The notes: generated by a model from the sequence alone, not told the origin. Shown: positions 10,419 through 59,534, counted from the first letter of the stretch. The stretch: DNA of 64,000 nucleotides from Phaeobacter sp. (GCF_022825805.1 NZ_JAJDWC010000066.1:4077-68076); one strand, 5' to 3'. Made by a program: numbers and translations.

Positions 10419-11039
10419 TCAGCTGGCAAAGCCAAAGGCACGCAACCCATCCAGCACAAACTGGACCGACAAAGCGGCCAACAACATGCCCAGCAAGCGC
10501 GTCACGACAGTGATGCCTGTCTTGCCCAGCAGCCGCTCCAAGACGCCGGAAAACAGACACAGGATCAACAGGATAGACAGGACCGCAAAGACCACGCCCA
10601 TCACCATCGCAAAGCCGTAGATCCCAGGCTGCTGCCCAGTCAGCAGGATCACGGTTGCAATGGATCCTGGCCCGGCAATCAGCGGGATCGACAGTGGAAA
10701 GACCGACGGGTCTTCGAAATCGTCTTCTTCGCTGCGGTCCTCGCGCCGTTTGTTGCGTCGTTCAAACAGCATGTCCAACGCGGTGAGAAACAGCAAAACG
10801 CCCCCGGCAATGCGAAACGCCGCCATGGAAATGCCGACAAACCCCAGTACCGCCTCGCCAAGGGCGGCAAACAGCGCCAGCAAACCCATCGCCGTCAGCG
10901 TGGCCCGCAGGGCGATGCTGCGTTTTTGCTGTGGACTCATCCCTTGTGTCATGGCGATGAAAATCGGTGTCAGCCCAATCGGGTCGATGATCACAAATAA
11001 CGTCACAAAAGAGGTGATCAGAAAAGCGGTGTCGATCAT
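10419..11039 (-). CDS. MarC family (UPF0056) integral membrane protein
   Basis: Starts MIDTAFLITSFVTLFVIIDPIGLTPIF, typical of the MarC family. The ATG at 11039 overlaps the upstream gene's stop (ATGA). The longer track ORF start at 11114 is unlikely. Confidence 0.8.
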   Translation of the reverse strand: MIDTAFLITSFVTLFVIIDPIGLTPIFIAMTQGMSPQQKRSIALRATLTAMGLLALFAALGEAVLGFVGISMAAFRIAGGVLLFLTALDMLFERRNKRREDRSEEDDFEDPSVFPLSIPLIAGPGSIATVILLTGQQPGIYGFAMVMGVVFAVLSILLILCLFSGVLERLLGKTGITVVTRLLGMLLAALSVQFVLDGLRAFGFAS

Positions 11040-16572: not shown

Positions 16573-17187
16573 TTAAAAAAGTCCTGCCTCTTTCGCCGTC
16601 AGCGCAGCCTGCGTGCGGTTCTTGGCGTCCAGCTTGCGGCACAATGTGCGCACATGGAGTTTGATCGTGACCTCTTGCAGGTCCAATTCCCGGGCGATTT
16701 CCTTGTTCGACAGTCCGCGGCACAGACCATCAAGCACCTCAATCTCACGCGGGCTGAGCTTGTCTGCAAGGGGATGGGCAGGGGCCTCTTCTTCTTGGCG
16801 CATCAGATCGACGGGCACGTAGATTTCACCCGCGCTCATGAACCGCACAGCATTCAACAGCGATTGCGCCCCCATGGTTTTGGGGATGAACCCGATGGCA
16901 CCGGCATCCAGCGCATCTTTGGCGATCTTGGCAGGCGCGCTGCCCGACAGGATGGCCACGCCCTTGCCGCCATTGGCCTCCAGCGCGGTGTTGAGCCCGG
17001 TCAACCCACTCATGCCCGGCATGTTGTAGTCCAGCAGCACCAGATCAAACGGGCCCTGATCGGCGATTTCTTTCAACGCGGATGGTAAATCGATCGCAGA
17101 AGTCACGGTCGCGCCACCTTCGGACGTCAGATATGCTGAGATGGTTTCTCGGACCATATCGTGATCGTCCGCCAATAGAATGCGCAT
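16573..17187 (-). CDS. two-component response regulator, REC + LuxR/FixJ-type HTH (NarL family)
   Basis: MRILLADDHDMVRE...DLVLLDYNMPGMSG (REC domain) and LSPREIEVLDGLCRGLSNKEIARELDLQEVTIKLHVRTLCRKL (LuxR HTH). There is no autoinducer-binding domain. Confidence 0.9.
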   Translation of the reverse strand: MRILLADDHDMVRETISAYLTSEGGATVTSAIDLPSALKEIADQGPFDLVLLDYNMPGMSGLTGLNTALEANGGKGVAILSGSAPAKIAKDALDAGAIGFIPKTMGAQSLLNAVRFMSAGEIYVPVDLMRQEEEAPAHPLADKLSPREIEVLDGLCRGLSNKEIARELDLQEVTIKLHVRTLCRKLDAKNRTQAALTAKEAGLF

Positions 17188-17552
17188 GTGGGCTCCTGTC
17201 ATACCTCAGACCTGTTCATTTTAACGTGACATTGGTTACGGATTTGTCAACGTGCAGATGCAGATACCAGCGTGGCATCGCCTCTTAAATTGCTCTCGGT
17301 CTGTTTGGTGCTGCCTGAGCGAATTTTATCGTAAAAATCGATGACCTTATGTAGATTATCCCCGTTGGTTACCAATCCTACATGAATCTTAGGCAAGCTT
17401 TAGGATGTCGGCGGATGGTGTGCACGTGGCGCATATGGCAGACGCGGGTTTTTTGGTTACGGTTTTGGCCATCCGGGACGCCCAAGCCATATCGAACGTC
17501 ATATTGCCTCTGCGGCCGCTGCAGGTCACTTTTCAGGAAAAGGAAGGCAGAC

Positions 17553-18154: not shown

Positions 18155-20971
18155 GTGCGATTTCAGGAAAACCCTCTCCTGTCGCGCAGCCTATTGTTGA
18201 CCGTTGCGCTTGTGCTCGTGTTGCTCGCGGTGCAATCCGTGCGGCTCGGCCGCGAGGTCCTGGTGCGCCTGGACGGGCTATCCACCGCTGCAACCGACAG
18301 CCTGCAATGGACGTTGTCGCAGGCCGAAATCGAACATCTGCGCCTGGAAACAGAGGTCCTGGCCGCCAAAAAAATCGAAGACCTGGCACAGCTGCGCCGC
18401 TCCTTTGATATCGTCTACAGCCGCGTGGCCACCATTCGCGAAAGCCGTACGTTTGCGCTCGTCCGGGATGCACCTGAAAATCGCGATATCCTCCCCAGGG
18501 TGGTGCAGCGGATCGACCGGTTGGTGGCCTATATTGATGGCCCGGACGAGGCGCTGCTGTTCGGTCTGCCCCGCGTCAGCGAGATTTTGCAGGAAAACCG
18601 CAGCGATCTGCGCAACCTGGCGCTTGCCGGGCTGACAGAACACGCCAAGGCCAGCGAAGAAAAGCGGCTGAATTTCTTTGCCTTGTTGTCGCGTCTGGCC
18701 TGGGTGGTATTGGCGTTATTTGTGGCGCTGACCCTGACAGCGTTGATGATGGGGCGGCTTTATCAGCGCGGCAAGCGTCTGGCGCTGCGCACCCGCGAGG
18801 CGGTGGCCCGGATGCGCGCCATGGTGTCATCGTCGCTTGATGCCATTTTGGTGGTTGATCACGAGGGCCGGGTGCAGGAATTCAACGGTGCGGCTGAGAC
18901 GATTTTTGGCTACACCAGCGCCGAGGCCATCGGTCAGGACATGGCAGAACTGATTGTGCCGGATCACCTGCGCGAGGCCCATGATGCGGGTATGAACAGC
19001 TATCGCAGCACCGGCACCGAACGGGTCATCGGTCGCGGCCGTATTCAGCTGGAAGCCAAGCGAAAATCTGGTGAGGTGTTTCCTGTCGAACTGTCGATCA
19101 GCACCAGCCAACCGGGCGACAGCGGGCCAGAAAAAACCGTGTTTGTCAGCTACCTGCGCGACATTTCTGATCGCATCGCCGCGGAAAAGGCGCTGACACA
19201 TGCCCGGGACGAGGCTTTGGCCGGGGAGCGGGCGAAGGCGGAATTGCTCACCGTCATGAGCCATGAAATGCGCACACCGTTGACAGGTGTGCTGGGCGCG
19301 CTGGATCTTCTCGACGGAACCGAGCTGACGGCGGCGCAGCGCAGCTATGCGGGGTTGATCCGTGAGTCCGGCGATCGGCTCATGGCGCATGTGAACGACG
19401 TGCTGCAGCTGTCGCATCTGGAAACCGGGGTGGAGAACGAAAACCAGCGGGTTTTTGATCTCGAACGCCTCGCCGCCGAAGTGGTTGAGTCCCACCAATC
19501 CAATGCAAGAGCGGCCCGTAACACATTGGAGTTGCGCTGTGATCTCGGTGCCCATGCCATGGTTCTGGGCCGACCGGTCGCGCTGCGGCAGGTCTTGATC
19601 AACCTGGTCGAAAATGCGCTGGATTTCACCGCCGATGGCAGTGTCAGCGTGGATCTGATGCGGCTTGGTGGTGGCGACACGGTCGAAATCTATGTGGCGG
19701 ACACCGGGCGCGGCATCGCCGAGGAGGATCTGGATCGGATTTTTGAAGATTTCATTCGTCTTGATGCCAGCTACGCCCGCAGCAGTGAGGGCACCGGCCT
19801 TGGTCTTGCGATCACGCGGCGCAGTGTCGAGGCGATGGGCGGCGAAATCTCCTGCGAGAGCGAGCTGGGTGAGGGCAGCCTGTTCACCATCACCCTGCCG
19901 CTGCCGGCCGGGATGCAACCTGCTGGGACTGGAACGGATCAGACATCTGGTCAGCGGCGCAGTGGCTTTGGCTCCGAGATTACGGCGCGCGCAGGGATAC
20001 CGGAGACAGGTGCTCCCTCTGGGTCGAGCGCGTGTACACCGGGTCAGTTAATACCGGGCCAGTCTAAACCGGACAAGTCTTCGATGAGCGGGTTCTCAGC
20101 GGCGCAGGGTGCGGGTGCGATGCCCTCAGCCTCCGTAAATCACGCCGCGCGCGCACACCAGACGGCTCCTCACGGTCAAGCGCGCACCGGATCAGGCCAT
20201 CGCATCCTCGTGGTCGAGGACAATGAAATCAATCGCATCCTGGTGGAAAAGATGCTGACCAAGCTGGGCCATCACGTAACGCTTGCGCCCGGCGGCGCAG
20301 AGGGTGTCGCAGCAGCGCGGCAGGACCAGTTCGATCTGATTTTCATGGATGTCAGCATGCCAGAAATCGACGGGCTGGAGGCCACGCGCCAGATCCGCGC
20401 TGGTGGTTACGCTGATGGCGTCGATATTGTCGCGCTGACAGCGCATGCAGGCGCCCAGGATCATGACCGGATTCTGGCAGGTGGGCTGGCCGAAGTGGTG
20501 ACCAAACCCATCAGCCTGGAGCGTCTGGAAGAGGTGATTGGCCGGCGCGTGTCCGGTGATGCCCCACGCCGCAGCCATATTGGTGGCGTGGCGCTCTGCG
20601 ATATCCCGGGGCTCGATGATGAGGATCCTGTCATCGCGGTCAAGTCCTCCAGCGTAGTCGTGCAAACCTCTGATATTTCGCAATTCTTCGGGGCGTTGGG
20701 ACAGGAAAAGGGACGCATGTTCCTGCAGCAATATCAAGGCGATATGGCGGCACTGTTGGGGGATCTCGGCGCAGAAACCAGCCTTAGCGCGGCGCAGCGG
20801 GATGAGGCTCATCGCCTTGCCGGATCAGCGGCGGTGCTTGGTTTTTCGGACCTGCGGCAGGCTCTTTTGGATGTTGAACACGCGCCACAGGATCAGGCCG
20901 CCGATCTGTCAGGGCTCCAGGCAATTTGGCAATTGGCCGAGCAGGAGATTTCCCGCCATCTGGCGGCCTAG
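18155..20971 (+). CDS. hybrid sensor histidine kinase (2 TM + periplasmic domain, PAS, HisKA, HATPase, REC, HPt)
   Basis: H-box LTVMSHEMRTPLTG, N-box LINLVENALDFT, G-boxes DTGRGIA and GTGLGLAI. The REC domain reads RILVVEDNEINR...DLIFMDVSMPEIDG. The C-terminal HPt reads EAHRLAGSAAVLGF. A low-complexity linker of about 90 aa separates HATPase from REC. The start codon is GTG. Confidence 0.9.
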   Translation: MRFQENPLLSRSLLLTVALVLVLLAVQSVRLGREVLVRLDGLSTAATDSLQWTLSQAEIEHLRLETEVLAAKKIEDLAQLRRSFDIVYSRVATIRESRTFALVRDAPENRDILPRVVQRIDRLVAYIDGPDEALLFGLPRVSEILQENRSDLRNLALAGLTEHAKASEEKRLNFFALLSRLAWVVLALFVALTLTALMMGRLYQRGKRLALRTREAVARMRAMVSSSLDAILVVDHEGRVQEFNGAAETIFGYTSAEAIGQDMAELIVPDHLREAHDAGMNSYRSTGTERVIGRGRIQLEAKRKSGEVFPVELSISTSQPGDSGPEKTVFVSYLRDISDRIAAEKALTHARDEALAGERAKAELLTVMSHEMRTPLTGVLGALDLLDGTELTAAQRSYAGLIRESGDRLMAHVNDVLQLSHLETGVENENQRVFDLERLAAEVVESHQSNARAARNTLELRCDLGAHAMVLGRPVALRQVLINLVENALDFTADGSVSVDLMRLGGGDTVEIYVADTGRGIAEEDLDRIFEDFIRLDASYARSSEGTGLGLAITRRSVEAMGGEISCESELGEGSLFTITLPLPAGMQPAGTGTDQTSGQRRSGFGSEITARAGIPETGAPSGSSACTPGQLIPGQSKPDKSSMSGFSAAQGAGAMPSASVNHAARAHQTAPHGQARTGSGHRILVVEDNEINRILVEKMLTKLGHHVTLAPGGAEGVAAARQDQFDLIFMDVSMPEIDGLEATRQIRAGGYADGVDIVALTAHAGAQDHDRILAGGLAEVVTKPISLERLEEVIGRRVSGDAPRRSHIGGVALCDIPGLDDEDPVIAVKSSSVVVQTSDISQFFGALGQEKGRMFLQQYQGDMAALLGDLGAETSLSAAQRDEAHRLAGSAAVLGFSDLRQALLDVEHAPQDQAADLSGLQAIWQLAEQEISRHLAA

Positions 20972-22607: not shown

Positions 22608-22910
22608 TGGCGCCGCCCTCACACGCATCTTGCGACTGCTCAGGACCTGGTGCGCGCCGTTGCGGAGTATTCGATCACGGTTAGGTGAGCGGGGCCACGT
22701 TCTGGCCTGAACCCGCAATTCCCATGCAGAACCGCCGCCGTTTCCATACATGTTACCATGAAACAACGCGATTTTTAGTCAAAAAGCCACTGTTCACGCT
22801 CCGCGAGATAAACCATCATAGGGGCACAATCCGTATCGATGCTTTGAAAGGTGTTCGACGTCAGTACAGTGACGAGGAAACGGGGTCGTGGCAGTAGCAG
22901 GAAATCGGCA

Positions 22911-24650
22911 ATGATGACGATATCGTCCAGTTTAAGGCGAGTTGTGGCCGCGCAGAATGAGCTGGTGAAAGAGGATCTGCCCTCGCGGTTTGCCTCCATC
23001 TCCATCGTGTCTCTTGTTTCGCTGTATTATCTGACGCTGGGCCAGATTGCCGTCGTCTATGGTGTTTATATCCTTGTCGAGTTGGTTGGCCTGCATGTCT
23101 ACCGTCGGCTGCGCCAGCAGGTGACGATGAACAGTGTGATTTTGTTTGTGGTCTCGGCCTTTGTCGGGGTTTGGACCTTCAACACGATTCCGCTGCTGCT
23201 CTATCTGCATGAGGATGGATTCTCTAAAGTGATGGGGGCCATGCTTCTGGTGATCGCGCTCAATCACTGTGTGGTTGCGCGCTCGCACTGGATGTTTTTC
23301 GGCCTGCTGACGGCCTTGCCCATCATCAGCGTCCTGATCTTTCTGGTTGGCAGCACCATCTGGCAGATCGGCAGCCTGACAGAGCTGATCATCGCGGCAA
23401 TCATCTTGCTGATTGGTGCGGCCTACACGCTGTTTGGGATCTGGACGCAGCACCGCATGGCCAACAATCTGCGTGATGCCCTCGCGGATGCGCAGGCCGC
23501 CAGCGAAGCCAAAAGCCGGTTCCTCGCCTCTATGAGCCACGAAATTCGCACGCCGCTCAACGCGATCTGCGGCATGTCGGAATTGATCGCAGAGGGTAAA
23601 TCAGACCCGGATGCCAACCGCGAACATGGCCGTTTGCTGTTCAGCTCGGCAACCGCATTGACCGGTATTCTGGATGACATCCTGGATCACGCAAAAATCG
23701 AAAGCGGGCAGGTCGAATTGGTCTGCTCCACCGCGAACCTGCGGGCGGAACTGACATCTGCGGTCGATATGTTCCGCTTTTCCGCCCATGACAAATCGCT
23801 GGATCTGGGGCTGGTCATTGCCGACAGCGTTCCCGACTTTGCCAATTGCGATATCCTGCGGCTGCGCCAGATCCTGTCCAATCTGGTCTCCAACGCCGTC
23901 AAATATACCGAAACCGGCCGTATTGATGTTGATATCTTTGCCGAACCCTCGGGCCGTAAAACCCGGTTGATCGTGCAGGTGAAGGACACCGGTCGCGGCC
24001 TGTCGGCCGAGGATCTGACCCAGTTGTTTTCTGATTTCTTCCGCGCCGAAAACAGCAACGCCCCCAGCGTACCTGGCACGGGGCTTGGCCTGTCGATTGC
24101 CCGGCGCCTGGCGCGCAAAATGGGCGGCGATCTGGTGGTGGAGAGTGAGCTGGGCAAGGGCAGCACCTTCACCCTGACCTGTGATATCTGGGCGGCAGAG
24201 ATGGTGGCTACTCCAGCGGTTGCCGCCACCACACAGTCCGCTGAAAGCGATGACCTCGGCGTCAAGAGCCTGCTGGTCGTCGATGACACAGCCTCCAACC
24301 GGCGGGTGGTGCGGGCGTTCCTGCAGCGCTTTGACGTCGAATTGCTGGAGGCGGAAAACGGCCGCGAGGCGCTGGATATTCTGGCCACGAAACAGGTGGA
24401 TCTGATCCTTCTGGACATGCGGATGCCGGTGATGGACGGCAAGGAAATGCTGATCGAATTGGCCAAGGCACCACCGGAAACCGCGCAGACGCCAGTGGTG
24501 ATGCTGACAGCCAATGCCGCGACCGAGGACCGCGAAACCTATCTTGCGCTTGGCGCTTCGGGATATATCGCCAAGCCGGTGCGCAAGAATGTTTTGTTGC
24601 AGGAAATCAACCGCGTTGCCGCCGCCGCGGCGCCGCGCGTTCCGTCCTGA
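22911..24650 (+). CDS. hybrid sensor histidine kinase/response regulator with a six-helix membrane N-terminus and no HPt
   Basis: Six hydrophobic helices lie within the first ~190 aa. They are followed by H-box SRFLASMSHEIRTPLN, N-box LSNLVSNAVKYT, G-boxes DTGRGLS and GTGLGLSIA, and REC LLVVDDTASNR...DLILLDMRMPVMDG. The start is uncertain (ATG 22911 after AGGAAA, or GTG 22851). Confidence 0.9.
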   Translation: MMTISSSLRRVVAAQNELVKEDLPSRFASISIVSLVSLYYLTLGQIAVVYGVYILVELVGLHVYRRLRQQVTMNSVILFVVSAFVGVWTFNTIPLLLYLHEDGFSKVMGAMLLVIALNHCVVARSHWMFFGLLTALPIISVLIFLVGSTIWQIGSLTELIIAAIILLIGAAYTLFGIWTQHRMANNLRDALADAQAASEAKSRFLASMSHEIRTPLNAICGMSELIAEGKSDPDANREHGRLLFSSATALTGILDDILDHAKIESGQVELVCSTANLRAELTSAVDMFRFSAHDKSLDLGLVIADSVPDFANCDILRLRQILSNLVSNAVKYTETGRIDVDIFAEPSGRKTRLIVQVKDTGRGLSAEDLTQLFSDFFRAENSNAPSVPGTGLGLSIARRLARKMGGDLVVESELGKGSTFTLTCDIWAAEMVATPAVAATTQSAESDDLGVKSLLVVDDTASNRRVVRAFLQRFDVELLEAENGREALDILATKQVDLILLDMRMPVMDGKEMLIELAKAPPETAQTPVVMLTANAATEDRETYLALGASGYIAKPVRKNVLLQEINRVAAAAAPRVPS

Positions 24651-24821
24651 CACTGCCCTGATCCCATCCCAATCTCAATCAAATGACGCTGCGCTACGGG
24701 TCGACGCCGGGGCAGGGCGGTGGCCTGTTGGTTTACGCTTTCTTCACCCTTCTATGAAAATTTTTACACAACTTTTTGGAAGGCGCCCCGCGGGGCTCAA
24801 TTGTGAAGGTGGCAGAACGCC

Positions 24822-25424
24822 ATGCAGTCGACCCATATTACATTTGACAATTTGAACCAGACCGGCGGGTTGTTCACGCAATTGCTGCGGGCCCGACACC
24901 ATCATTTTGTGGAGCTGCATGATTGGCAGCTGCCCAATGTGCGGGGCATGGAGTTTGACCAATATGACACGCCCGAAAGCGTCTATTGTGCCATCCACGA
25001 CGACGATGTTGTGTCCGCCGGATTCCGACTGACACCAACAACGGCCCAAAGCATCAATGCCAGCTACATGTTGCGTGATGCGCAGTTGGGCCTGTTGCCG
25101 GGCCTGCCGCAGACGGTCTTGGATGATCCGGCGCCGCGTGATCCGGGCATCTGGGAAATCACCCGTGTGTTTGTCTCCGACAACCTCAAAAGCCGCGACA
25201 GGCAGCGGGTGCGCCGGGAAATGGCCGTCAATCTGGCGCGACTGGCGCGGGCGTGGAATGTGCAGTCATTCCTTTGCCTGACATCCGTCACGGCCGCGCT
25301 CTTGACCCTGAAAGTCGGGTTTGATCTGTCCCCTGCCGGTCCAAGGTTCGAGGTCGCGGGCGAAACCTGCCAGGCCTATCGCTTGCAACTGGCCGCCAAC
25401 ACAGCGCGCAGCCAGGCGGCCTGA
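24822..25424 (+). CDS. acyl-homoserine-lactone synthase (LuxI family)
   Basis: 200 aa with R25-x3-F29-x5-W35-x8-E44-x-D46-x2-D49, in register with V. fischeri LuxI as I recall it. Also has FRLTPTT (LuxI WRLLPTT), WEITRVF (LuxI VELSRF) and CLTSVTA (LuxI TVTSTA). Confidence 0.85.
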   Translation: MQSTHITFDNLNQTGGLFTQLLRARHHHFVELHDWQLPNVRGMEFDQYDTPESVYCAIHDDDVVSAGFRLTPTTAQSINASYMLRDAQLGLLPGLPQTVLDDPAPRDPGIWEITRVFVSDNLKSRDRQRVRREMAVNLARLARAWNVQSFLCLTSVTAALLTLKVGFDLSPAGPRFEVAGETCQAYRLQLAANTARSQAA

Positions 25425-25493: not shown

Positions 25494-26153
25494 TCAGCCC
25501 TGTTGTGGCTGCCTGCCACTGCCTGCCATCCAGTCGGCGCAGGCTGTTGCCACGGCCTCATATGTTGCTTTGCCAATCGCCTCTCCGATGGCTGTGTGCA
25601 ACCCGGCATAGGGCTGCGTTCCGGTCGGGGCCGCCACTGCAACGCAATCGGTGCCGGTGCCCGTGGCGAGGCCCGAGCGCAGCATGAGACCTGCGTCGAT
25701 CACCGCGGCGGTGCGCGCTTGCACCACAAGGCTCATGGCCTCGATCAGGGCGGCGTCGGTGATCCCCTCGGACAGCTGCAGGGCGATATTGATCGTGCCC
25801 CAATCCCGCCCGCTGTGATCCAGCCGATGGCCGATCCGTTCCGCATTGGACAGACCCACGGTGGCCACCACATGAGCGGTTATGCCCTCGACCTCGGCCC
25901 GTGCTTCGGTGAATTGGCGCACATCGCGAGAGGTCAGGAAACCCACGGCTTGGGCCGCGCCCCGTTGGTGCAGCTCCGCCTCATACCAGGTCGCAGCGTC
26001 CAGTTCCGGGGGCAGATCGCGGTTGCGCACTTCCCGCCATAGGATCTGCTGCGCACGCACCAGCCCCGGTCGGTTGACCGCCCAGCTGAGCACTGTCATC
26101 TCCTGACCAAGATCAAAAGTCAGCCAGGGCCGCTCCAACGTCAGATGTCCCAT
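25494..26153 (-). CDS. cbiZ: adenosylcobinamide amidohydrolase CbiZ
   Basis: About 219 aa with VGFLTSRDV, GTINIALQL and ATGTGTDCVAV, which resemble CbiZ. It is the last gene of the riboswitch-controlled btu operon, with its start overlapping the ATPase stop (TGATG). Confidence 0.7.
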   Translation of the reverse strand: MGHLTLERPWLTFDLGQEMTVLSWAVNRPGLVRAQQILWREVRNRDLPPELDAATWYEAELHQRGAAQAVGFLTSRDVRQFTEARAEVEGITAHVVATVGLSNAERIGHRLDHSGRDWGTINIALQLSEGITDAALIEAMSLVVQARTAAVIDAGLMLRSGLATGTGTDCVAVAAPTGTQPYAGLHTAIGEAIGKATYEAVATACADWMAGSGRQPQQG

Positions 26154-26953
26154 CACAGCACCTCAAGCGGTTGAAACACAGGCCCCTGTGCGGTCTGTTG
26201 GTGCCAGACCGAAATGCCAAAGGCCTGCGCCATTAAATCAGGCGTCAACACCGTATCAGGCGGCCCATCGGCCAGCACGCCATGGTCCCCCATCAGGATC
26301 AACCGGGTGCAATGGCGCGCAGCCAGCCCCAGATCATGCAGCGACACAAAGGCAGATCGCCCCTCCTGCGCCAGCCGGGCAAAGATCTCCATCGTGGCGA
26401 TTTGATGCGCCGGATCCAGCCCTGCGGCCGGTTCATCCGCCATCAGCAGCGGGGTGTCTTGCGCCAGTGCCCGCGCGATCAGCACGCGCGCCTGCTCGCC
26501 ACCAGACAGGCGCGAGGCAGCCCGGTGGCGCATCGGCTGCAGCCCCATCTGGTCGATGGCTTGGTCCACCTTCGCCTGATCCTGCGGTGTCAGACGCGCG
26601 CCTTGCGGCAGATGCGGCAATCGGCCCAGGGCGACAAGCCGCTCAACCGCGATGGGCCAGGCGATTTCGCGCGCCTGCGGCATCCAGGCCACCGCGTGGG
26701 CCCGGTCGGCGGCTGTCAGCGCGGCAAGCGAGCTGTTACCTTTGGCAGCGATCAGCCCCAGCGCGGCCCGCATCAGGGTGGTTTTGCCCGCCCCATTGGG
26801 GCCCAAGAGCCCGACAAATTCACCGGGCTGGATGTCAAACGAGACATCGCGGAACACATCGCGTCCGCGCAGGCTGACAGAGAGGTTCTGGATCGACAGG
26901 TTTTCAGCTGGTGGGGTGTGTGCAGGCTGCTCTGATGGTGATGTCGCGCTCAT
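26153..26953 (-). CDS. btuD: ABC transporter ATP-binding protein (FecE/BtuD type)
   Basis: Walker A GPNGAGKTT, signature LSGGEQ, Walker B LLMADEP. In an operon with a FecCD permease and a PF01497-like binding protein, downstream of a B12 riboswitch. Confidence 0.8.
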   Translation of the reverse strand: MSATSPSEQPAHTPPAENLSIQNLSVSLRGRDVFRDVSFDIQPGEFVGLLGPNGAGKTTLMRAALGLIAAKGNSSLAALTAADRAHAVAWMPQAREIAWPIAVERLVALGRLPHLPQGARLTPQDQAKVDQAIDQMGLQPMRHRAASRLSGGEQARVLIARALAQDTPLLMADEPAAGLDPAHQIATMEIFARLAQEGRSAFVSLHDLGLAARHCTRLILMGDHGVLADGPPDTVLTPDLMAQAFGISVWHQQTAQGPVFQPLEVL

Positions 26954-27933
26954 ACCTGGCCCCTCCGGGTTTTGTAGATCAGATGCAAAAACAGCGGCGC
27001 CCCCACCAATGCGGTCACCACACCCAGCTTCAGATCACGATCGGGCAAGATCAGCCGCACCGCAAGATCCGCCAGCTGCAACATCACCGCACCGCCAAGC
27101 GCCGAGGCCCAGAGAAGCCGGGACGGCTGGCCGCCCACAAACGGGCGCAGGATATGGGGCACGACCAAGCCGATGAACCCGATTGCACCGGCCACTGCGG
27201 TTGCGCCGCCAACAATGCTGGCGGTGCCCAGCACCAACAGCAGCCGCAGTCTGGACAGGTTGATCCCCATGGTCTGCGCTGCGTCTTCTCCCAATGTCAG
27301 GGCGTCCAGCCCACGGCCCAGCCGCAGCAGGATCACCGCCCCCCCGCCGACAAAGGGCAGCGCAATCGCCAGATGCACCAAAGAGCGATCCGCCAGGGAC
27401 CCCATCATCCAGAACACAATCTCGCTGGCGGCAAACGGGTTCGGAGAAAGGTTCAAAACCAGCGAGGTCAGCGCGCTGGCCATGGCTGAAATCGCGATGC
27501 CCGCAAGGATCAAGGTCAGCGATCCGCCCTGCGGACCGGCCAGCAACAACACCAAAAACACGGCGACGAGCGCGCCGGCCAGCGCCGCCAGGGGCAGGCC
27601 AAACAGCATCGCAGCGGCCAATCCGGTGTTCAGCGCCACAACCGCGCCCAATGCCGCGGCCGCCGATACGCCAATCAGCCCCGGTTCCGCCAATGGATTG
27701 CGTAGATACCCCTGCAGCGCGGCACCGGCCAGTCCGAGGCCCGCGCCAATCACCGCCGCCAGAAGCGCGCGGGGCAGGCGGATTTCCCGCATCACCAGCG
27801 TCAGCGGTCCATAGCTGTCATCCACCAGGGCAGCAAAACTGTCGCGCCAGTTCACCTCTGCGGGCCCGACGCCCAGCGACAGGCCAAAAAGCACCACCAC
27901 ACAGGTGGTCAGCATCGCCATCAGCCGTGTCAC
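26950..27933 (-). CDS. btuC: FecCD-family ABC permease (BtuC-like)
   Basis: 327 aa polytopic protein with the typical FecCD sequence LPRALLAAVIGAGLGLAGAALQ. 4-bp overlaps on both sides. Confidence 0.8.
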   Translation of the reverse strand: MTRLMAMLTTCVVVLFGLSLGVGPAEVNWRDSFAALVDDSYGPLTLVMREIRLPRALLAAVIGAGLGLAGAALQGYLRNPLAEPGLIGVSAAAALGAVVALNTGLAAAMLFGLPLAALAGALVAVFLVLLLAGPQGGSLTLILAGIAISAMASALTSLVLNLSPNPFAASEIVFWMMGSLADRSLVHLAIALPFVGGGAVILLRLGRGLDALTLGEDAAQTMGINLSRLRLLLVLGTASIVGGATAVAGAIGFIGLVVPHILRPFVGGQPSRLLWASALGGAVMLQLADLAVRLILPDRDLKLGVVTALVGAPLFLHLIYKTRRGQV

Positions 27934-28820
27934 TGTGCCCTGTCCCTTTTGGTGAAATGGCGCCGTTCAACCGCCAATCTGTCTATGGCACGCAGGACAT
28001 GTGGCGTGCCACAGACCCAATCGGCTTGTCTTATCTGACCCGTGGTCTGCGGCGTTGACAAGTGGCGCAGCACCGGATGGGTCAGGTTTTCTTCGCTGCG
28101 GGCGGGACTGTCGTGGGGCGTGTTGGCCACCAACATGTCCGGCTTTGCCATCACCAGCTGTTCCAGTGGCAGGCGGGCAGGGCCGGTATAACCCAGTTCA
28201 CTCGCAATATTGGCAAAGCCCGCAGCCTCCAGAATTTGGCCCGCCAAGGTCTGCGGCCCGGAGGTGTAGGTGTTCGCATCATAAAGCGCCGCACGCGGGC
28301 GCCCTGCGTCGGCGTCGGTGCCTGTCCTGCCAGACGCATCGCCTGTGTTTGCTCCCGCTGCATTCACTTGGTCGAACGCCGCTAGCTGCTGTTCAAACTC
28401 CGCCACCAGCTCCTCGGCGGCGTCACGACGGTTCAGCGCCGCCCCCATTTGCAGCAGCCGGGCCGCCACATCCTGGAGCGAGGTCGCTGGGTCAAACACT
28501 GCCACCGGCACCCCAAGCCGTCGCAACATGGCGGTGGTGGCGGGCGCCGAAAACGTGCCGGTGACCACCAGATCTGGCTGCAGCAGATAAATCTCCTCTG
28601 CCAGACCGTGGTTGATCGGATAGCCCTGCGCGACATCGGCCATGGCCGAGGCGTCGGGATCGCGGGCGATGTAGGACACCGACACCAGTTGCCCGGGCTT
28701 GGCGAGCATCATCGCCAGCTGATCGGTGCAGAGGTTCATCGATACCACACGAACGGGATCCGCCATCACTGTGGACATCGTCCATAGCCATGTCAGCGCA
28801 ATGAGGATCCCGCCACGCAT
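27930..28820 (-). CDS. btuF: periplasmic corrinoid/iron-complex binding protein (BtuF-like)
   Basis: 296 aa with a signal peptide and RVVSMNLCTDQL...PDLVV, characteristic of class III periplasmic binding proteins. Confidence 0.7.
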   Translation of the reverse strand: MRGGILIALTWLWTMSTVMADPVRVVSMNLCTDQLAMMLAKPGQLVSVSYIARDPDASAMADVAQGYPINHGLAEEIYLLQPDLVVTGTFSAPATTAMLRRLGVPVAVFDPATSLQDVAARLLQMGAALNRRDAAEELVAEFEQQLAAFDQVNAAGANTGDASGRTGTDADAGRPRAALYDANTYTSGPQTLAGQILEAAGFANIASELGYTGPARLPLEQLVMAKPDMLVANTPHDSPARSEENLTHPVLRHLSTPQTTGQIRQADWVCGTPHVLRAIDRLAVERRHFTKRDRAQ

Positions 28821-28823
28821 GAT

Positions 28824-30743
28824 TTAGAACGCCGCCCGCAGCCCGACGAAGGCCGCGCGCCCCCGTCCGGCATAGCCCCAGACGTCGGATTGGTCCTCGT
28901 CAAACAGATTGGTGATGCGCCCTGTCAGCGTCAGCCCGTCACGCAGCTCATAGTCCGCAGACAGGTCCACCGTGGTGTAGTCCGGCAGCTCTGCGGTGGC
29001 GAAACTGCCGAAGAACTGAGTGTCGAATGTGCCAGCCACATGATGGATGTTTGCGGTCAGCCCGCCACGGTTGTCTTCGGTCCGCCAGGTCGCGCCGAGC
29101 AACAGCTCGTGCCGGGGGCGGCGGGTTTTGACAGTGCCATTAGGATTGGCCGCATCCAGATAGGTATAGGTCAGACCCAGATCGAGCTGGTCGGTGGCTT
29201 CCAGATTGGCGGCCAGTTCGACGCCGGTGCGACGGCTGTCGCCGGCTTGGTTGCGATAGGAGAACACGCTGGCGCCGGTGGTGGGATCGCTGCTCTGCAG
29301 GAAGGCTTCGATCTCGCCGGTCAGTGTTTCATCGAAATAGGTCACATCGATCAGACCGCGCCCCTGCAGAAACGGCAGGGTCACCCCAATGTCAAAGCTG
29401 CGGTTTTCCTCCGGCTGCAACGCGGCGTTGCCGACATAGGTGGCGCTGCCGAAGGTGTCATTGGCAAACAGCTCGAAATAGGACGGGTTCACGATGCCGG
29501 TGCCCGCCGAGGCATGCAGGCGAATGCCGCTGCCTGCAAACAGATAAGAGGCGCTGGCCGTCCAGCTGGTGGCATTTTCAAAGGCGCTGTTGTTGTCGCG
29601 GCGCGCGCCCAGCTGCACATCCAGACCATTGGCAAAGCGGCCGCGATATTCCAGCGCAAGCGAGGTGGTGCTGCGGCGGTAGGCCGGATTGGCGCTGCTG
29701 CTGTCGTCTTCCCACTCCAGCATGGCGTTCACCAAATGGTTGGCCTCCGCGGCGCGCTCGCCGTTCAGGCCAAAGCTCAGCAGGTATTTGGCTGCATCGG
29801 TCTGGGTTTCGGTGGGCGCAAAGCCGTTGAAGGAGAAATCATAATCCGTGCGTTCAAACGACAGGCGATGCGACAGCCGCCCATTGAGGCTGGTCAATTC
29901 ACCCCAGATCTGCACCAGCTGTTCGTCGCGATCGCTGAATTGGCTCGGATCATCAACCACATAGCCTGTTGGCAGGCTGGCGGCGCCATTGGTGCGGTCG
30001 GTGTCGAAATATTCATCCGAGGCGCGCAGGTTGACCCCGACCTTAGAATCGGGCGTGAGCTGGTAGTCGCCTTTCAGCTGCACGGTGTTGCGGCGAATGC
30101 GGTCGTCTTCGCCGCCATCGCCGGAGGCATCAAAACCGCCGTCGTTGTCATGCGCAAGGCTGAGCGTCAGCCCGCCTTTTTCCGAGCGGCTGGAGACAAT
30201 GGCAGAGGCGCGATGGCCGTCGCTGCCCACTTCGACACTGGTTTCATAGCTGGTGCCAAGCCCGCCGGTTTTGGTGATGATATTGATGACCCCGGCAGAG
30301 GCATTGGAGCCATAGAACACGGATTGCGGCCCGCGCAGAACCTCAATCCGGTCGATGGTGGCTGTGTCGAGACCGGACAGGATGTATTCGCTGTCGCCCC
30401 CGGCGATTTCGACCCCATCGATCAGGATCAACGTGTGGTTGGCTTCGCCGCCACGGATGCGCACCTGCGTGCCACTGCCACCTGCGCTGCTGACAGAGAG
30501 GCCAGGCACCGCGCGCAACGCGTCCTGCACAGAGGTGATGCCACGGTCGGTGATCTCCTGGCCGGTGATGACAGAGGCCGCGCGGCCATAGCTGTCTTCT
30601 GCAATAGGAGTCAGCCCGCCCGAAATGATGATCGGTTTCAGGACGAAAGTTTTGATATCATCGGTGGTGTCCGCCGCCGATCCGAGTGCGGGTGCCGCGG
30701 CCATAGCTGCGGCGAGAGACAAGTTGACCTTGCGCATGTTCAT
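28824..30743 (-). CDS. btuB: TonB-dependent outer membrane receptor (BtuB-like)
   Basis: Signal peptide MNMRKVNLSLAAAMAAAPALGSAA and plug motifs (ITGQEITDRGITSVQDALRAVPGLSV, IEVLRGPQSVFYGSNA). The C-terminus ends in F (LRAAF). A cobalamin riboswitch lies immediately upstream. Confidence 0.85.
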   Translation of the reverse strand: MNMRKVNLSLAAAMAAAPALGSAADTTDDIKTFVLKPIIISGGLTPIAEDSYGRAASVITGQEITDRGITSVQDALRAVPGLSVSSAGGSGTQVRIRGGEANHTLILIDGVEIAGGDSEYILSGLDTATIDRIEVLRGPQSVFYGSNASAGVINIITKTGGLGTSYETSVEVGSDGHRASAIVSSRSEKGGLTLSLAHDNDGGFDASGDGGEDDRIRRNTVQLKGDYQLTPDSKVGVNLRASDEYFDTDRTNGAASLPTGYVVDDPSQFSDRDEQLVQIWGELTSLNGRLSHRLSFERTDYDFSFNGFAPTETQTDAAKYLLSFGLNGERAAEANHLVNAMLEWEDDSSSANPAYRRSTTSLALEYRGRFANGLDVQLGARRDNNSAFENATSWTASASYLFAGSGIRLHASAGTGIVNPSYFELFANDTFGSATYVGNAALQPEENRSFDIGVTLPFLQGRGLIDVTYFDETLTGEIEAFLQSSDPTTGASVFSYRNQAGDSRRTGVELAANLEATDQLDLGLTYTYLDAANPNGTVKTRRPRHELLLGATWRTEDNRGGLTANIHHVAGTFDTQFFGSFATAELPDYTTVDLSADYELRDGLTLTGRITNLFDEDQSDVWGYAGRGRAAFVGLRAAF

Positions 30744-30914
30744 TCCCCTGATTTCATTCTCAGACCACTCACGCCTGTGGCGCAAGCCATCTTGCGACCG
30801 GATCTGGCCGCGATACTGCAATAGGGTCCTTGGAACGCGTCGGTCCCGCAGACGGTGAAACTGTCACCACCACGGAAGACCGTTGTCGCCAGCGCGCCCC
30901 GCGCCCGAACAGGG

Positions 30915-31110
30915 TGAACATCCTGGCAGGTCTCCTGACTCGCGGGTCGAAGCTCAGCCGCACCTTCCCACCCATGGGGGCACCCATCGGGCTGACCCAT
31001 CGGGCAGTGGTATATCGCCGCCTTGCTCTCCGCTCACAGTTGCGGGGGCAGTCACGGGTTTGGCGCCTGTTTGCAGCACCGCACCGTGTTCCCTTTTACC
31101 CGAATGGTTT
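30915..31110 (-). promoter_or_regulatory. cobalamin (B12) riboswitch upstream of btuB
   Basis: The minus strand reads GGTAAAAGGGAACACGGTG...GTGACTGCCCCCGCAACTGTGAGCGGAGAGC...CCACTG...GGGAAGG...AGTCAGGAGACCTGCC (B12 box at about 30923-30945). Boundaries are approximate. Confidence 0.9.
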
Positions 31111-31351
31111 CCCACCCGGACCAGAATGTCTGGCAAATAGCCAAAGTCAAAAACACCTGTCAAGCGCGCCCGAACCGGAGCGGAAATATTTTGGCAATTC
31201 AAACGGAAGGCCGCAATCAAACGTAATTATAACAGTATCTTACACGTCGTTATTCAGGCGGAAATCTATGCGCAAAACACCGGTTTTACACGGCTATTGC
31301 CAATAGCGATGTCGCTTTGTCCACAATTGGATGGGCCATTTGCGACATGGC

Positions 31352-32359
31352 TCAGTGGCGCTTCTCACTCAGCAGCAGCGCAAAGACAAAAACCGCCCCC
31401 AAAGAGGTGGTCACGATGCCCACTGGCAGCTCTTGTGGGGCCAGCAGCAAACGCGCCGCCAGATCCGAGGCGGTCAGCAAGATCGCCCCAACCAGCGCGG
31501 CGGAGGGCAGCAGATGGCCATGCAACGGCCTCACGATGCCACGGGCCAGATGCGGCACCATCAGGCCGACAAAGCCGATGACCCCAGCCACGGACACAAA
31601 GGCTGCGGTTGCCAAGGCGGAGATCACAAAAGTTGCGATCCGCAGCCGGTGGACCGGCACGCCAAGGCTCTGGGCGGTGCGGTCCCCGGCCAGCAGCGCA
31701 TCGAACCACCGTTGCCGCCAGAGCGCAAAGACAAAGATCAGCATCAGCCCCACCAGCACGAGGGGCAGGGTCTCCCAGCGCGCCAGGCCCAGCCCGCCCA
31801 ACATCCAGAACACCACCGAATGCGCGGCGCGGTTGTCGCCTGAGAAGATCAGATAATTGGTGATCGCCGCAAACAGGAAAGACACGGCCAAGCCCGATAG
31901 GATCAGCTTTTCAGGGGCGCTGGTGCGCAGCCGCTGCACCAGCAACAGCACCACGCCCGAGGCAATCATGCCGCCCACAAATGCGGCCATCGGCAGGGTC
32001 CAGAACCCCAGCACATCGCCGGTCACCGTGATCACAAACACCGCGCCCGCAGCAGCGCCAGAGGAGAGGCCAAACAGGAAGGGATCCGCCAGATCGTTGC
32101 GGGTGGTGGTTTGCAGCACCACACCAACCAGGCCCAGTCCCGCACCGATGATGGCCGAAAACAATGCCCGCGGCAGGCGCAGGTCAAAAATGATGCGATC
32201 CATCGGTGAGGGGTCCGCCACTTGGATCCCCATGCCGGTTGCGATGGCCGAAAAGACATCCGCAACGGGAATGGGGGTCGTCCCGTGCAAAACAGACAAC
32301 AGGAGAAGGGTGGCCAGAACGGCCACCCCCACTGTCATACGCAGACCAAATTGGCCCAT
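31352..32359 (-). CDS. FecCD-family ABC permease
   Basis: Polytopic protein with LPRALFSAIIGAGLGLVGVVLQ. The likely start is MGQFGLRMTV at 32359, one nt after the binding-protein stop. Confidence 0.85.
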   Translation of the reverse strand: MGQFGLRMTVGVAVLATLLLLSVLHGTTPIPVADVFSAIATGMGIQVADPSPMDRIIFDLRLPRALFSAIIGAGLGLVGVVLQTTTRNDLADPFLFGLSSGAAAGAVFVITVTGDVLGFWTLPMAAFVGGMIASGVVLLLVQRLRTSAPEKLILSGLAVSFLFAAITNYLIFSGDNRAAHSVVFWMLGGLGLARWETLPLVLVGLMLIFVFALWRQRWFDALLAGDRTAQSLGVPVHRLRIATFVISALATAAFVSVAGVIGFVGLMVPHLARGIVRPLHGHLLPSAALVGAILLTASDLAARLLLAPQELPVGIVTTSLGAVFVFALLLSEKRH

Positions 32360-32360
32360 C

Positions 32361-33305
32361 TCAGAACAGGCCCGGATGCATGGCTTCGGCCATTTTGGCG
32401 ATGGCATCGATGTTGGCTGGTCCTGGGGTCAGCTCTTCGTAGCGCAGGCCAATCCAGTTTTCGTTCTTCACCGCATCGACATGGGCCATGACGGGATGAT
32501 CCTTGAGGAACTGGAAGGTGTCTGCGGCGCTGTTGCCACCCTGATAGTCCAGCAGCACCAGGAATTCCGGGTTCGCGGCCGCCACGGTCTCCCAGGAGCT
32601 GCGGCCCCAGCTGGTGTCCATGTCATGGGTGATGTTGGTGCCGCCAGCGGCCGCAATCATCGCGTCGGGGATGGCAAATTTGCCCGAGGTGAAGGGCGCG
32701 TCAGCCGGACCATCCAGCAGGAACACGCGCGGTTTGTCGAGCGATGCGGTCTTTGCCTCGATGGCAGCAAGCTGGTCTTTCCAACCGGTGACAAGCGCCT
32801 CTGCCTTGTCCGAGACATCCATCACCTGGCCAAGCCGCAGAACATCGTCAAACAGCAGATCCATGCTAGCGACCGGGCGGTTGTCATGCTGGTGCACGCA
32901 GCTTTCGGTCAGGACCATGGTTTTGATGCCAAAGGGTTCCAGCGTGTCGGGGGTCACGTCACCGCCGGGCTTCATGCCATAGTACCACCCTGCAAAGAAC
33001 ATGTCGGGCGTTGCCGCCACCAGGTTTTCAACGGTGGGGTATTTTGGGGCCAGCTCGGGGATGTCACCGCGCAGCTCGTCAAAGTCGGGGCTGGTTTTGT
33101 ACCAGCCGGTGATGCCGGTGAGCCCGACGATCTTGTCTTGCAGACCAAGCGCAAAGGCCATGTCCGTCATATTCATGTCATGGACAACAATGCGTTCGGG
33201 TGTCGCGTCGAACACCAGTTGCTCGCCGCAGTTGTCGACCACGATTTCGGCAGATGCAGCGCTCGCAAGACCGAGCAGAGCCGCTGATGACCAGAGCAGT
33301 TTCAT
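32361..33305 (-). CDS. ABC substrate-binding protein (PF01497-like periplasmic binding protein)
   Basis: 314 aa with signal peptide MKLLWSSAALLGLASAASA. RIVVHDMNMTDMAFALGL...PDMFFAG matches the class III binding protein layout. Confidence 0.75.
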   Translation of the reverse strand: MKLLWSSAALLGLASAASAEIVVDNCGEQLVFDATPERIVVHDMNMTDMAFALGLQDKIVGLTGITGWYKTSPDFDELRGDIPELAPKYPTVENLVAATPDMFFAGWYYGMKPGGDVTPDTLEPFGIKTMVLTESCVHQHDNRPVASMDLLFDDVLRLGQVMDVSDKAEALVTGWKDQLAAIEAKTASLDKPRVFLLDGPADAPFTSGKFAIPDAMIAAAGGTNITHDMDTSWGRSSWETVAAANPEFLVLLDYQGGNSAADTFQFLKDHPVMAHVDAVKNENWIGLRYEELTPGPANIDAIAKMAEAMHPGLF

Positions 33306-33328
33306 AAAAGGATCTCCATTCAGGATAG

Positions 33329-34108
33329 TTAGGGGTGAATGTCGGTTTTTCGGATATCAAGCGCGGGGATCTGCCGCCCGTTGTGGGGCAAAAGCAGGTA
33401 ATCCACGCCAAATGTGTCGCGCACGGCCTCAGGCGTCAGCACCTCTTCGACGGGGCCAAAGGCGGTCAGCCGGGCCGATTTCACCAGTGCGACATGGGTG
33501 GCAAATTCCGGGATCATCACCAGATCATGCAGGATCGTGACCACCGTGATGCCGAGACCGGCAATCAGCGACAGCATCCGTCCCTTGGCGTCCGGATCCA
33601 GGTGGTTGGTGGGTTCATCCAGGAACAACAGCTGCGGGCGCTGTGCCAGCGCGCGGGCGATATGGGCGCGTTGCTGCTCACCGCCTGACAGCTGGCGCAT
33701 CGGCTTTGTCGCCAGATGGGACAGGCCGGTCAGCTCTAGCACCCGGTTCAAGGCGCTGTCATGGGTTTCCTGGCTGTGGTCCTGCCGGATCGGGATCTGG
33801 CCCAACACCACATAGTCGCGCAGCGACAGCCTGCCATCGGGATCGGATTGCTGCGATACCACCGCAATGCGGCGGGCGCGTTCCATCGCCGATAGGCTGC
33901 GCAGGCTGGTGCCGTCGATCTGTACATCCCCCAGCGCGATGTCCACCACGCCGGACAGCAGGTTCAGCAGCGTGGTCTTGCCCGCCCCATTGGGACCGGC
34001 AATGGCCAAAACCGCGCCCTGTGGCAGCTCAAAGCTGACATCACGCAAGAGCGGATCGCCATTCAGCGCATAGTATTCCAGTTGGCTTGCTTTCAGACCT
34101 GCTATCAC
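33329..34108 (-). CDS. ABC transporter ATP-binding protein
   Basis: Walker A GPNGAGKTT, signature LSGGEQQR, Walker B LLFLDEPT. Confidence 0.85.
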   Translation of the reverse strand: MIAGLKASQLEYYALNGDPLLRDVSFELPQGAVLAIAGPNGAGKTTLLNLLSGVVDIALGDVQIDGTSLRSLSAMERARRIAVVSQQSDPDGRLSLRDYVVLGQIPIRQDHSQETHDSALNRVLELTGLSHLATKPMRQLSGGEQQRAHIARALAQRPQLLFLDEPTNHLDPDAKGRMLSLIAGLGITVVTILHDLVMIPEFATHVALVKSARLTAFGPVEEVLTPEAVRDTFGVDYLLLPHNGRQIPALDIRKTDIHP

Positions 34109-34485: not shown

Positions 34486-34602
34486 GAGGATCCTTGCTCG
34501 CATTCAAGCGCGGATCGAAGGTGCCTTTTGTCTCATTACACGAAACACGTGCCATAAAGCCTCCTTCCAAGGCGCCCCGCCTTGGGTTGGTTGACGTTTC
34601 GA

Positions 34603-34785
34603 TGGCAGGTCTCCTGACTCGCGGGTCCTTGCTTGGCTGGCCTTCCCGGGGTGTCCCAGTGGCGTGTTCAGCCGCGCTCTCCGCTCACAGTTGCGGGGGC
34701 AGTCACGGATTTGGCGCCTGTTGGCTACAACTCACCGTATTCCCTTTTCATCCCAGAGGCTCAAGCGCTCTTGGGAACCATCGCG
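34603..34785 (-). promoter_or_regulatory. cobalamin (B12) riboswitch upstream of the DUF1636-ABC operon
   Basis: The minus strand reads GATGAAAAGGGAATACGGTG...GTGACTGCCCCCGCAACTGTGAGCGGAGAGC...GCCACTGGG...GGGAAGGCC...AGTCAGGAGACCTGCC. It shares a 33-nt and a 25-nt identical block with the riboswitch at 30915-31110. Confidence 0.9.
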
Positions 34786-34923
34786 AGTTTGATCCACAAA
34801 TTTCCCGAGCCTGTCAATCCCAATCGCACGCCCGGCGGCTGCAACGCTGACCTTACGGCAGCCACCCGACGGCCCCCACGCGCGGGGCCTGCCCAATCGT
34901 TAGGCAAAAGGCGCGCGCAATAG

Positions 34924-57140: not shown

Positions 57141-57183
57141 TCGTCAGCAATTTTAACTTGTGACATCACAGGATGCACGCTAA

Positions 57184-57219
57184 AGTGTCCCCTAGGATTT
57201 CCGGGGGCACTTTTTATTT
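57184..57219 (+). terminator. intrinsic terminator after soxG
   Basis: AGTGTCCCC...GGGGGCACT stem (one mismatch) followed by TTTTTATTT. Confidence 0.65.
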
Positions 57220-57323
57220 GTTGTTCGGGCTTTAGCCCATTTGTCTCCCTGCACAGCCGCTTCGGAAGCCGAGATAGTCGACCGCCGTTTTTCCACGGTG
57301 GGCTGGTTGTGATTTGAGGTTTT

Positions 57324-57905: not shown

Positions 57906-58068
57906 TCGCTGCAAAATCGGATCGCTCGGGAACCAGACCGCTCCGAACCCAGGCTGCTCCGAAAATATGCGGGGAGTTGCACGGGCTCAGTGCAGCCCCC
58001 TTCAAACAGATCTCTCGCAGGGTGCTGGATGTTTGACCTGCGAAAAATATGAAAAAGGTCAACATGAT

Positions 58069-59480: not shown

Positions 59481-59534
59481 GGCCGGGTCGTCAGACATTT
59501 GGCAGGATCTGCTGAGGTGGATCTTGCCGCTTCG

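Follow-up and report, generated by a model that had tools for sequence, protein, structure and literature searches.

How is an acyl-homoserine lactone (AHL) signal perceived when the gene next to its LuxI-type synthase encodes a membrane histidine kinase and not a LuxR receptor? This question is raised by a locus in a 64,000-nucleotide stretch of DNA, hereafter the window, which was taken from a metagenome scaffold of 80 kb that bears the label Phaeobacter sp. The two genes concerned, a hybrid sensor histidine kinase (HK1) and a LuxI-family synthase, lie in tandem on the same strand and, as a first-pass annotation of the window had described, are separated by 171 bp:

22911-24650 (+): hybrid sensor histidine kinase HK1, 579 aa (called gene, orthologue N-termini, Pfam)
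24651-24821 (+): intergenic region, 171 bp (sequence, promoter and terminator scan, orthologue alignment)
24822-25424 (+): LuxI-family acyl-homoserine-lactone synthase, PgaI2 orthologue, 200 aa (PF00765, catalytic residues, match of the family profile to LasI and TofI)

The locus is a further member of a published roseobacter arrangement, in which a luxI orthologous to pgaI2 and MED193_08053 has a kinase gene immediately upstream and no adjacent luxR. Roseobacters are abundant marine bacteria, and AHL signalling controls their motility, antibiotic production and interactions with algae. The idea of a kinase-LuxI pairing, together with the analogy to LuxN, has been in print since 2013: Cude and Buchan described orphan luxI genes of the I-delta type that are preceded by a histidine-kinase gene (topologies H, I and J; MED193_08053 is among them) and suggested a LuxN-like regulation on at most 26% identity (PMC3824088). 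The pgaI2 locus was described again in 2025, in a study that also places the Dinoroseobacter shibae homologue in an operon with its transcription factor (PMC12363192). What is newly reported here is that, across genera, only the two-gene pair is conserved. From the comparisons below, the pair is most likely a quorum-sensing module in which the kinase, standing in the LuxR position, would act as the membrane-embedded signal-transduction partner.

Our statements on LuxR for this scaffold cover the window. No autoinducer-binding domain (PF03472) was present in the precomputed Pfam matches of the called genes (about 14.8-56 kb), nor in Pfam scans of the remaining likely genes of the window. Furthermore, when a hidden Markov model (HMM) built from 60 LuxR proteins of the clade was run against all six frames of the window, only the helix-turn-helix (HTH) of a NarL-type regulator was returned (E 0.015). 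The earlier claim that no such domain is encoded in the 64 kb was thus confirmed. The one gene reported to fuse a LuxR-type HTH to a receiver (REC) domain is indeed present; its extent, given before as 16573-17187, had to be corrected to 16573-17202 on the minus strand.

The position upstream of the synthase in its LuxI clade

The census on which the argument is built comprised 86 loci of the LuxI clade to which the synthase belongs, 84 of which were testable and 2 untestable. The upstream neighbour of the synthase gene was a LuxR in 62 of the testable loci, the six-helix hybrid kinase in 14 and a second, multi-pass kinase in 8; no testable locus (0/84) was devoid of a receptor-like neighbour in this slot. 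Among the loci compared, L020 comes from a metagenome-assembled genome labelled Exiguobacterium profundum with a luxRI locus of Rhodobacterales type, which is likely due to contamination or mis-binning.

Orthologues of the synthase, with 61-84% identity, were found in Phaeobacter, Pseudophaeobacter, Tritonibacter, Epibacterium, Sedimentitalea and Roseobacter sp. MED193, while the sister group of synthases (40-48% identity) was distributed over Jannaschia, Roseicyclus, Rhodobacter, Tabrizicola, Paracoccus and others. When the kinase sensor was used as a tblastn query, it was located next to the synthase, on its upstream side, in all orthologous loci whose flanks were long enough (10 loci and L082-L084), and no sister-group locus had it. 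A survey of luxI-kinase adjacency in relatives, as had been proposed for this locus, therefore gave conservation in every testable orthologous locus; kinase and synthase are co-directional there, with gaps of 112-327 bp. In MED193 (L005), the kinase match and luxI share one orientation, with 130 bp between the end of the match and luxI; Cude and Buchan state the opposite orientation for topology J. In the sister group, a LuxR carrying PF03472 occupies the same place, immediately upstream of the synthase and on the same strand, with a gap of 51-88 bp.

The eight sister-group loci without LuxR, which are of Rhodobacter/Tabrizicola type, all carry the second kinase, divergently oriented beside the synthase. 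It is non-hybrid; its N-terminal region is hydrophobic and apparently multi-pass, and HisKA and HATPase domains follow:

L022, 7528-8979 (-): second kinase
L075, 7583-9202 (-): second kinase
L032, L041, L049, L063, L073 and L079: second kinase at each of these loci

At L075, a 466-aa open reading frame (ORF) with a receiver-like beginning lies just downstream of luxI (10524-11924, minus strand).

In a neighbour-joining tree of the synthases, the 14 linked to the hybrid kinase grouped as a single clade on a long branch. Those of the eight second-kinase loci fell inside the LuxR-linked radiation, seven of them as one clade and that of L079 branching beside it. Between the two kinase sensor types, hhalign gave a probability of 1.4%, and they were treated as unrelated. 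As the two kinases are unrelated and their synthases occupy separate places in the tree, a polytopic kinase appears to have taken the place of LuxR on at least two occasions in this LuxI clade. This pattern of the slot, which was not found in the literature searched, is the strongest argument that the sequence comparisons offer for a functional link.

The flanks of the pair point in the same direction. In the window, an amino-acid oxidase gene lies upstream and a CbiZ gene downstream; in P. gallaeciensis, genes for an FMN dehydrogenase and a TPP enzyme follow the pair, and in Pseudophaeobacter it stands between urease/GST genes upstream and DnaE2 downstream. The upstream neighbours seen in the window are common only to P. 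italicus. Since the flanks differ while the kinase-synthase pair stays, the pair is kept as a unit and is what selection acts on. The conserved adjacency and the presence of LuxR at the same position in the sister clade speak for kinase and synthase being functionally linked, and a functional module that stands in place of LuxR can be regarded as well supported at the level of sequence.

Two further signalling genes lie upstream of the cassette, the NarL-type regulator mentioned above (16573-17202, minus strand) and a PAS hybrid kinase (18155-20971, plus strand) with a weak C-terminal match to the histidine phosphotransfer (HPt) domain (21 bits for a Pfam cut-off of 24.6). Both were rejected as conserved parts of the module, since apart from the window only P. 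italicus (L002) has them upstream of the cassette; there the PAS kinase is the immediate neighbour of the six-helix kinase. They could be a lineage-specific relay partner.

Synthase, kinase and the region between them

Key residues of LuxI enzymes are R25, F29, W35, E44, D46, D49, R70, E101 and R104. In an alignment of 19 members of the synthase family, R25, F29, W35, E44, D46, D49, R69 and R115 were invariant and E112 was conserved in at least 90% of the sequences. PF00765 matched the protein with 32 bits (cut-off 24, E 1.1e-7), the match covering only profile positions 11-113 of 183. The family profile matched LasI (1RO5) and TofI (3P2F) over essentially their full length, with E values of about 1e-20, and matched the acyl-CoA-type synthases BjaI (5e-12) and RpaI (1e-10) less well. 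Because LasI and TofI are matched at full length and above these CoA-type enzymes, the protein can be considered a genuine, if divergent, LuxI-family enzyme by its sequence, in accordance with the identity and signature residues first assigned to this ORF.

In the NCBIfam scan, TraI-type models scored about 21 bits and an exosortase-associated acyltransferase model 19 bits. The weak Pfam and NCBIfam scores had prompted a reading as an N-acyl amino acid synthase or a CoA-type LuxI, which was rejected on the full-length LasI/TofI match and the biochemistry of PgaI2. Purified PgaI2 from P. inhibens forms AHLs in vitro from C6-C18 acyl donors, best with C10/C12, and is thought to be the source of long-chain AHLs in vivo; its broad substrate range overlaps the products of PgaI1, such as 3-OH-C10, and the sister-clade enzyme LuxI1 of D. 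shibae yields C18:2-HSL (Ziesche et al. 2018, PMC6009203). The synthase of the window is best explained as a PgaI2-type enzyme, which would make medium- to long-chain AHLs.

For the kinase, the start codon proposed initially (GTG 22851) was not upheld. The longest ORF, of 599 aa, does begin at this GTG, but the N-termini of the orthologues align to its M21, and ATG 22911 (579 aa) is the start in the gene callers and in all orthologues; it is the likely start. The domains are distributed as follows, with residue numbers of the catalytic and receiver domains given in the 599-aa frame:

22926-23450 (+): six-helix intramembrane sensor domain (hydropathy, AlphaFold2 models, conservation)
23508-23708 (+): HisKA/DHp domain, aa 220-286 (PF00512, E 1.2e-14)
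23850-24182 (+): HATPase_c catalytic domain, aa 334-444 (PF02518, E 8e-29)
24273-24608 (+): C-terminal receiver (REC) domain, aa 475-586 (PF00072 Response_reg, E 2.4e-27)

The phospho-accepting histidine of the motif SHEIRTPLN (H230 in the 599-aa frame, H210 in the 579-aa protein, nt 23538-23540) was invariant in 33 kinase homologues. The N, G1 (DxGxG) and G2 (GTGLGL) boxes of the HATPase_c domain and the phospho-accepting aspartate of the receiver motif LLDMRMP (D522 in the 599-aa frame, nt 24414-24416) were likewise invariant in the homologues. No HPt domain was detected in the kinase by Pfam, and the protein stops shortly after the receiver. The architecture that had been read from the sequence, namely six closely packed helices followed by HisKA, HATPase and REC without HPt, was thereby corroborated by Pfam and AlphaFold2.

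No Pfam or NCBIfam family matched residues 1-220 of the kinase. AlphaFold2 was run with 33 homologues and then on the sensor alone; six helices connected by loops of 2-5 residues were predicted, and the sensor-only model reached a pLDDT of 92.3 and a pTM of 0.82. In the numbering of the 579-aa protein, these helices span residues 6-37, 43-69, 73-99, 103-123, 128-153 and 156 onward, and a short cytoplasmic amphipathic lead-in precedes them. Helix 6 is continuous with the DHp helix in the models. The positively charged N-terminus and the RRLRQQ loop agree with a six-pass topology in which both termini would be cytoplasmic. Invariant residues of the sensor are D22, R26, E57, R124, P137 and Y172, and such tightly packed, nearly loop-free helices with conserved intramembrane polar residues would suit a lipophilic ligand.

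The sensor has few relatives. When 1.84 billion representative proteins were searched exhaustively by phmmer with the sensor alone, only 21 clusters were recovered; all are 549-639 aa long except two fragments, which therefore indicates one architecture throughout. A word-index homologue search with the sensor alone was empty, though exhaustive phmmer gave these 21 clusters. With Foldseek, the sensor-only model found no usable relative in the PDB, the best being ImcA (E 0.98, TM-score 0.38). The six-helix sensor is thus a narrow family without a solved structural relative. Among the homologues, one kinase 56% identical to that of the window (P0136) is labelled Nocardioides marinus, again likely through contamination or mis-binning.

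Neither a terminator nor a sigma-70 promoter was predicted in the kinase-luxI gap, the counts across the scanned region being at chance level. The alignment of the orthologues highlighted an AT-rich element, TTAA-N7-TTTAC(G)ATTGCCTGTAAAAGTTG...AAATTTT, which lies some 60-100 bp before luxI and is present in 11 of 13 orthologues; in several loci it forms a TTTAC-N8-GTAAA inverted repeat. The window, where the element is found at about 24731-24779 (GTTTACG...TATGAAAATTTTTACACAAC), and P. italicus keep only part of it, the upstream TTAA half being missing. This region is probably luxI's own regulated promoter, and the element may be a CtrA-box-like site. Such a reading is consistent with the published fall of pgaI2 by about fourfold in ctrA, cckA and chpT mutants of P. 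inhibens (PMC12363192). In most orthologues a small hairpin of non-conserved sequence can be drawn 20-45 nt upstream of the luxI start codon (24780-24800 in the window). As a conserved 5'-UTR structure it was rejected, since folding z-scores of -1.8 to +1.8 are not significant and the hairpin may be due to chance.

Beyond the cassette, the CbiZ gene adjoins the 3' side of luxI. Two cobalamin riboswitches (30908-31140 and 34587-34797, both on the minus strand; 133 and 121 bits) adjoin two metal/corrinoid uptake gene clusters (25494-34108) with the ABC-transporter genes FecCD, Peripla_BP_2 and ABC_tran and, in the first cluster, a TonB-dependent receptor. Five ORFs of 168-485 aa (57134-57640, minus; 57967-58551, plus; 58665-59690, minus; 62798-63997, minus; 8-1465, plus) had no Pfam match, and some of these may be shadow ORFs in this sequence of 60% GC.

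Direct AHL sensing and its alternatives

How the kinase would serve the synthase can be formulated as follows. The hydrophobic AHL would partition into the inner membrane and be sensed inside the loop-less six-helix bundle, where E57, the N/H of an ALNHC motif, R124 and Y172 would line the pocket. Helix 6, being continuous with the DHp helix, would then toggle the protein between its kinase and phosphatase states. Phosphate would pass from the histidine to the receiver aspartate and, as the kinase has no HPt of its own, from there to the HPt of another protein and to a response regulator. Since luxI has its own putative promoter with a conserved AT-rich element, the output could feed back on signal synthesis. 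The ligand, the direction of information flow and the downstream partners are inferred in this scheme. The intact H-box, the N and G boxes, the receiver aspartate and the precedent of LuxN and AinR were counted in its favour, and we give direct AHL sensing by the six-helix kinase a probability of about 0.4.

Several observations weigh against it. The LuxR-independent circuit that the first-pass annotation had envisaged could not be sustained, because cultured carriers of the same cassette hold luxR genes elsewhere in their genomes: a luxRI pair and an orphan luxR are found in both MED193 (MED193_10428/10423 and MED193_03932) and P. gallaeciensis/inhibens DSM 17395 (PGA1_c03880/03890 and PGA1_c15590) (PMC3824088, Tables A1 and A2). 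These LuxR proteins could be the real receptors. As pgaI2 is under the control of the CtrA phosphorelay in P. inhibens (PMC12363192), the kinase could also be an input to synthase expression and not a receptor. No HPt or response-regulator partner is conserved beside the pair. The literature searches, which included the kinase locus tags, returned no study that tests the kinase or links it to an AHL. In addition, the sensor has no similarity beyond its own narrow family in the phmmer search, and none to LuxN: residues 1-220 did not match the NCBIfam model NF041945 (LuxN_Vibrio) at E<=1, and the profile comparison of the sensor with LuxN, suggested at the outset, gave an hhalign probability of 0.08% and -9 bits by hmmsearch, that is, no detectable homology. 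The V. harveyi LuxN sequence used for the comparison scored 1694 bits against NF041945, above the cut-off of 1550, which validates both this sequence and the use of the model.

Family members without a neighbouring luxI bear on the same point. At L090, L092, L093 and L094, the kinase always has the same housekeeping neighbours, the order being LplA-like gene, kinase, Mem_trans, Lactamase_B, TatD, holB and tmk. L087 likewise lacks a luxI, and one further member of the family is found beside unrelated genes. Distant members of the family, with 30-45% identity, retain D22, R26, E57, R124, P137 and Y172. As such members occur without luxI, the sensor is not intrinsically tied to a neighbouring synthase, and the luxI-linked kinase seems to descend from a sensor that already existed on its own. 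The stand-alone kinases may hear AHLs in the manner of LuxR solos; alternatively, the family senses another cue and was recruited to control the synthase.

The latter alternative, in which the kinase would regulate synthase expression from upstream via a phosphorelay while the AHL is read by LuxR-type proteins elsewhere (PgaR or the orphan LuxRs), is a quite possible reading of the locus. Its cue would be another membrane-associated input, e.g. the state of the lipids or the envelope, a fatty-acid-like metabolite or a host or algal compound. The relatives with the same sensor residues and no adjacent luxI imply an ancestral function independent of a neighbouring synthase; the conserved element that luxI has of its own, the dependence of pgaI2 on CckA-ChpT-CtrA and the LuxR genes elsewhere in the carriers all fit. 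However, this explanation fits less well with the fact that the kinase sits in the slot and on the strand of the sister-clade LuxR, and with the second swap of LuxR by an unrelated kinase, receptor replacement being easier to envisage than two independent recruitments of unrelated input sensors. The same slot pattern, with LuxR, hybrid kinase or second kinase in 84/84 testable loci, is hard to square with a looser, operon-like pairing, in which kinase and synthase would be co-inherited and perhaps co-transcribed but work in separate pathways, the orphan luxI adding to an AHL pool read by a PgaR-type system. Read-through transcription is possible, no terminator being predicted in the gap, the substrate range of PgaI2 overlaps PgaI1 products, and the pair has no linked HPt or response regulator as a partner; but the exact pair is kept across at least five genera with otherwise unrelated flanks, and we consider this pairing improbable.

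Least probable is an atypical product sensed by the kinase, such as an N-acyl amino acid or an HSL whose aryl or branched acyl group comes from acyl-CoA. The Pfam match limited to the N-terminal half of the model, the TraI and acyltransferase scores and one orthologue whose source label is isovaleryl-HSL synthase would speak for it, while the LasI/TofI match is better than those to BjaI and RpaI and purified PgaI2 makes ordinary C6-C18 AHLs.

Two extensions of direct sensing deserve mention. That the six-helix kinase is an intramembrane AHL receptor which displaced LuxR, and that the second multi-pass kinase of the eight loci did so independently, is somewhat unlikely when both parts are taken together; if true, membrane AHL sensor kinases would gain one or two families that are new and not related to LuxN, the first to be paired with LuxI-type synthases. 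A lower probability is given to a scheme in which the kinase, for want of an HPt, would signal to ChpT and through it to CtrA, which in turn would activate luxI via the conserved TTAA-N7-TTTAC element; the autoinduction loop would thereby be closed, and AHL quorum sensing in roseobacters would be mechanistically joined to the CtrA phosphorelay.

In conclusion, the hypothesis that the kinase is an AHL receptor is strengthened but unproven. If it is correct, two-component AHL perception extends beyond the LuxN/AinR systems of Vibrio and to signals made by LuxI enzymes; if it is wrong, what remains is an orphan luxI of the ordinary kind next to a gene of a two-component system. What the 2013 review mentioned in passing becomes, through the census, a hypothesis that can be tested sharply in a genetically tractable organism, P. 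inhibens DSM 17395.

Comparison with known systems

The closest published loci are those of pgaI2 in DSM 17395 (L082) and of MED193_08053 (L005). They are like the window in gene order and orientation, with synthase identities of 61-67% and kinase identities of about 54-56%. The genes downstream of L082 agree with the published topology M of PGA1_c07680, which has mandelate dehydrogenase and sulfopyruvate decarboxylase genes downstream (PMC3824088). The window is of another lineage, whose nearest relative is P. italicus (84% and 71% identity); its flanks are different, and its luxI-proximal element is shortened by the TTAA half.

LuxN/LuxM of V. harveyi and AinR/AinS of V. fischeri resemble the present pair in that a polytopic HisKA-HATPase-REC kinase without HPt stands beside an AHL synthase. 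LuxN and AinR are AHL receptors that are switched from kinase to phosphatase when the AHL binds, and LuxN, which has nine membrane helices, relays through the separate HPt protein LuxU. The kinase of the window differs by its six helices (AlphaFold2), by a core that is nearer the TorS/BarA/LuxQ type than LuxN in NCBIfam, and by a partner synthase of the LuxI family instead of the LuxM/AinS family. When the kinase was compared to LuxN by BLASTP, similarity was confined to the HATPase and REC domains (28% identity). Of the likeness to LuxN/AinR first put forward, the hybrid core without HPt therefore stands, while a homologous sensor does not (NCBIfam, BLASTP, hhalign, AlphaFold2).

Judged by its known design, CqsS appears to be the closest in architecture, nearer than LuxN. 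In CqsS/CqsA of V. cholerae and LqsS/LqsA of Legionella, a histidine kinase with a six-helix intramembrane sensor responds to a lipophilic autoinducer made by an adjacent synthase, and CqsS, like the kinase of the window, has a REC domain and no HPt. The fusion of helix 6 to the DHp helix in the AlphaFold2 model is also in keeping with the CqsS/LqsS design. The signal of these systems is an alpha-hydroxyketone formed by the PLP-dependent CqsA, in contrast to an AHL from a LuxI enzyme, and no CqsA-like gene was seen among the called genes next to the kinase. RpfC/RpfF of Xanthomonas offers a further parallel, likewise with a multi-pass hybrid kinase for a fatty-acid-derived signal (DSF) from the product of a neighbouring gene. 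RpfC has five helices with a short periplasmic sensor, an HPt and extra domains, and RpfF belongs to the crotonase family; homology is not to be expected.

Finally, the canonical LuxR/LuxI pairs of the sister clade (topology C, of the D. shibae LuxR1/LuxI1 type) share with the window the LuxI clade, at 40-48% identity, and a receptor gene immediately upstream on the same strand. There the receptor is a cytoplasmic LuxR with PF03472, whereas in the window the same place is taken by a membrane kinase.

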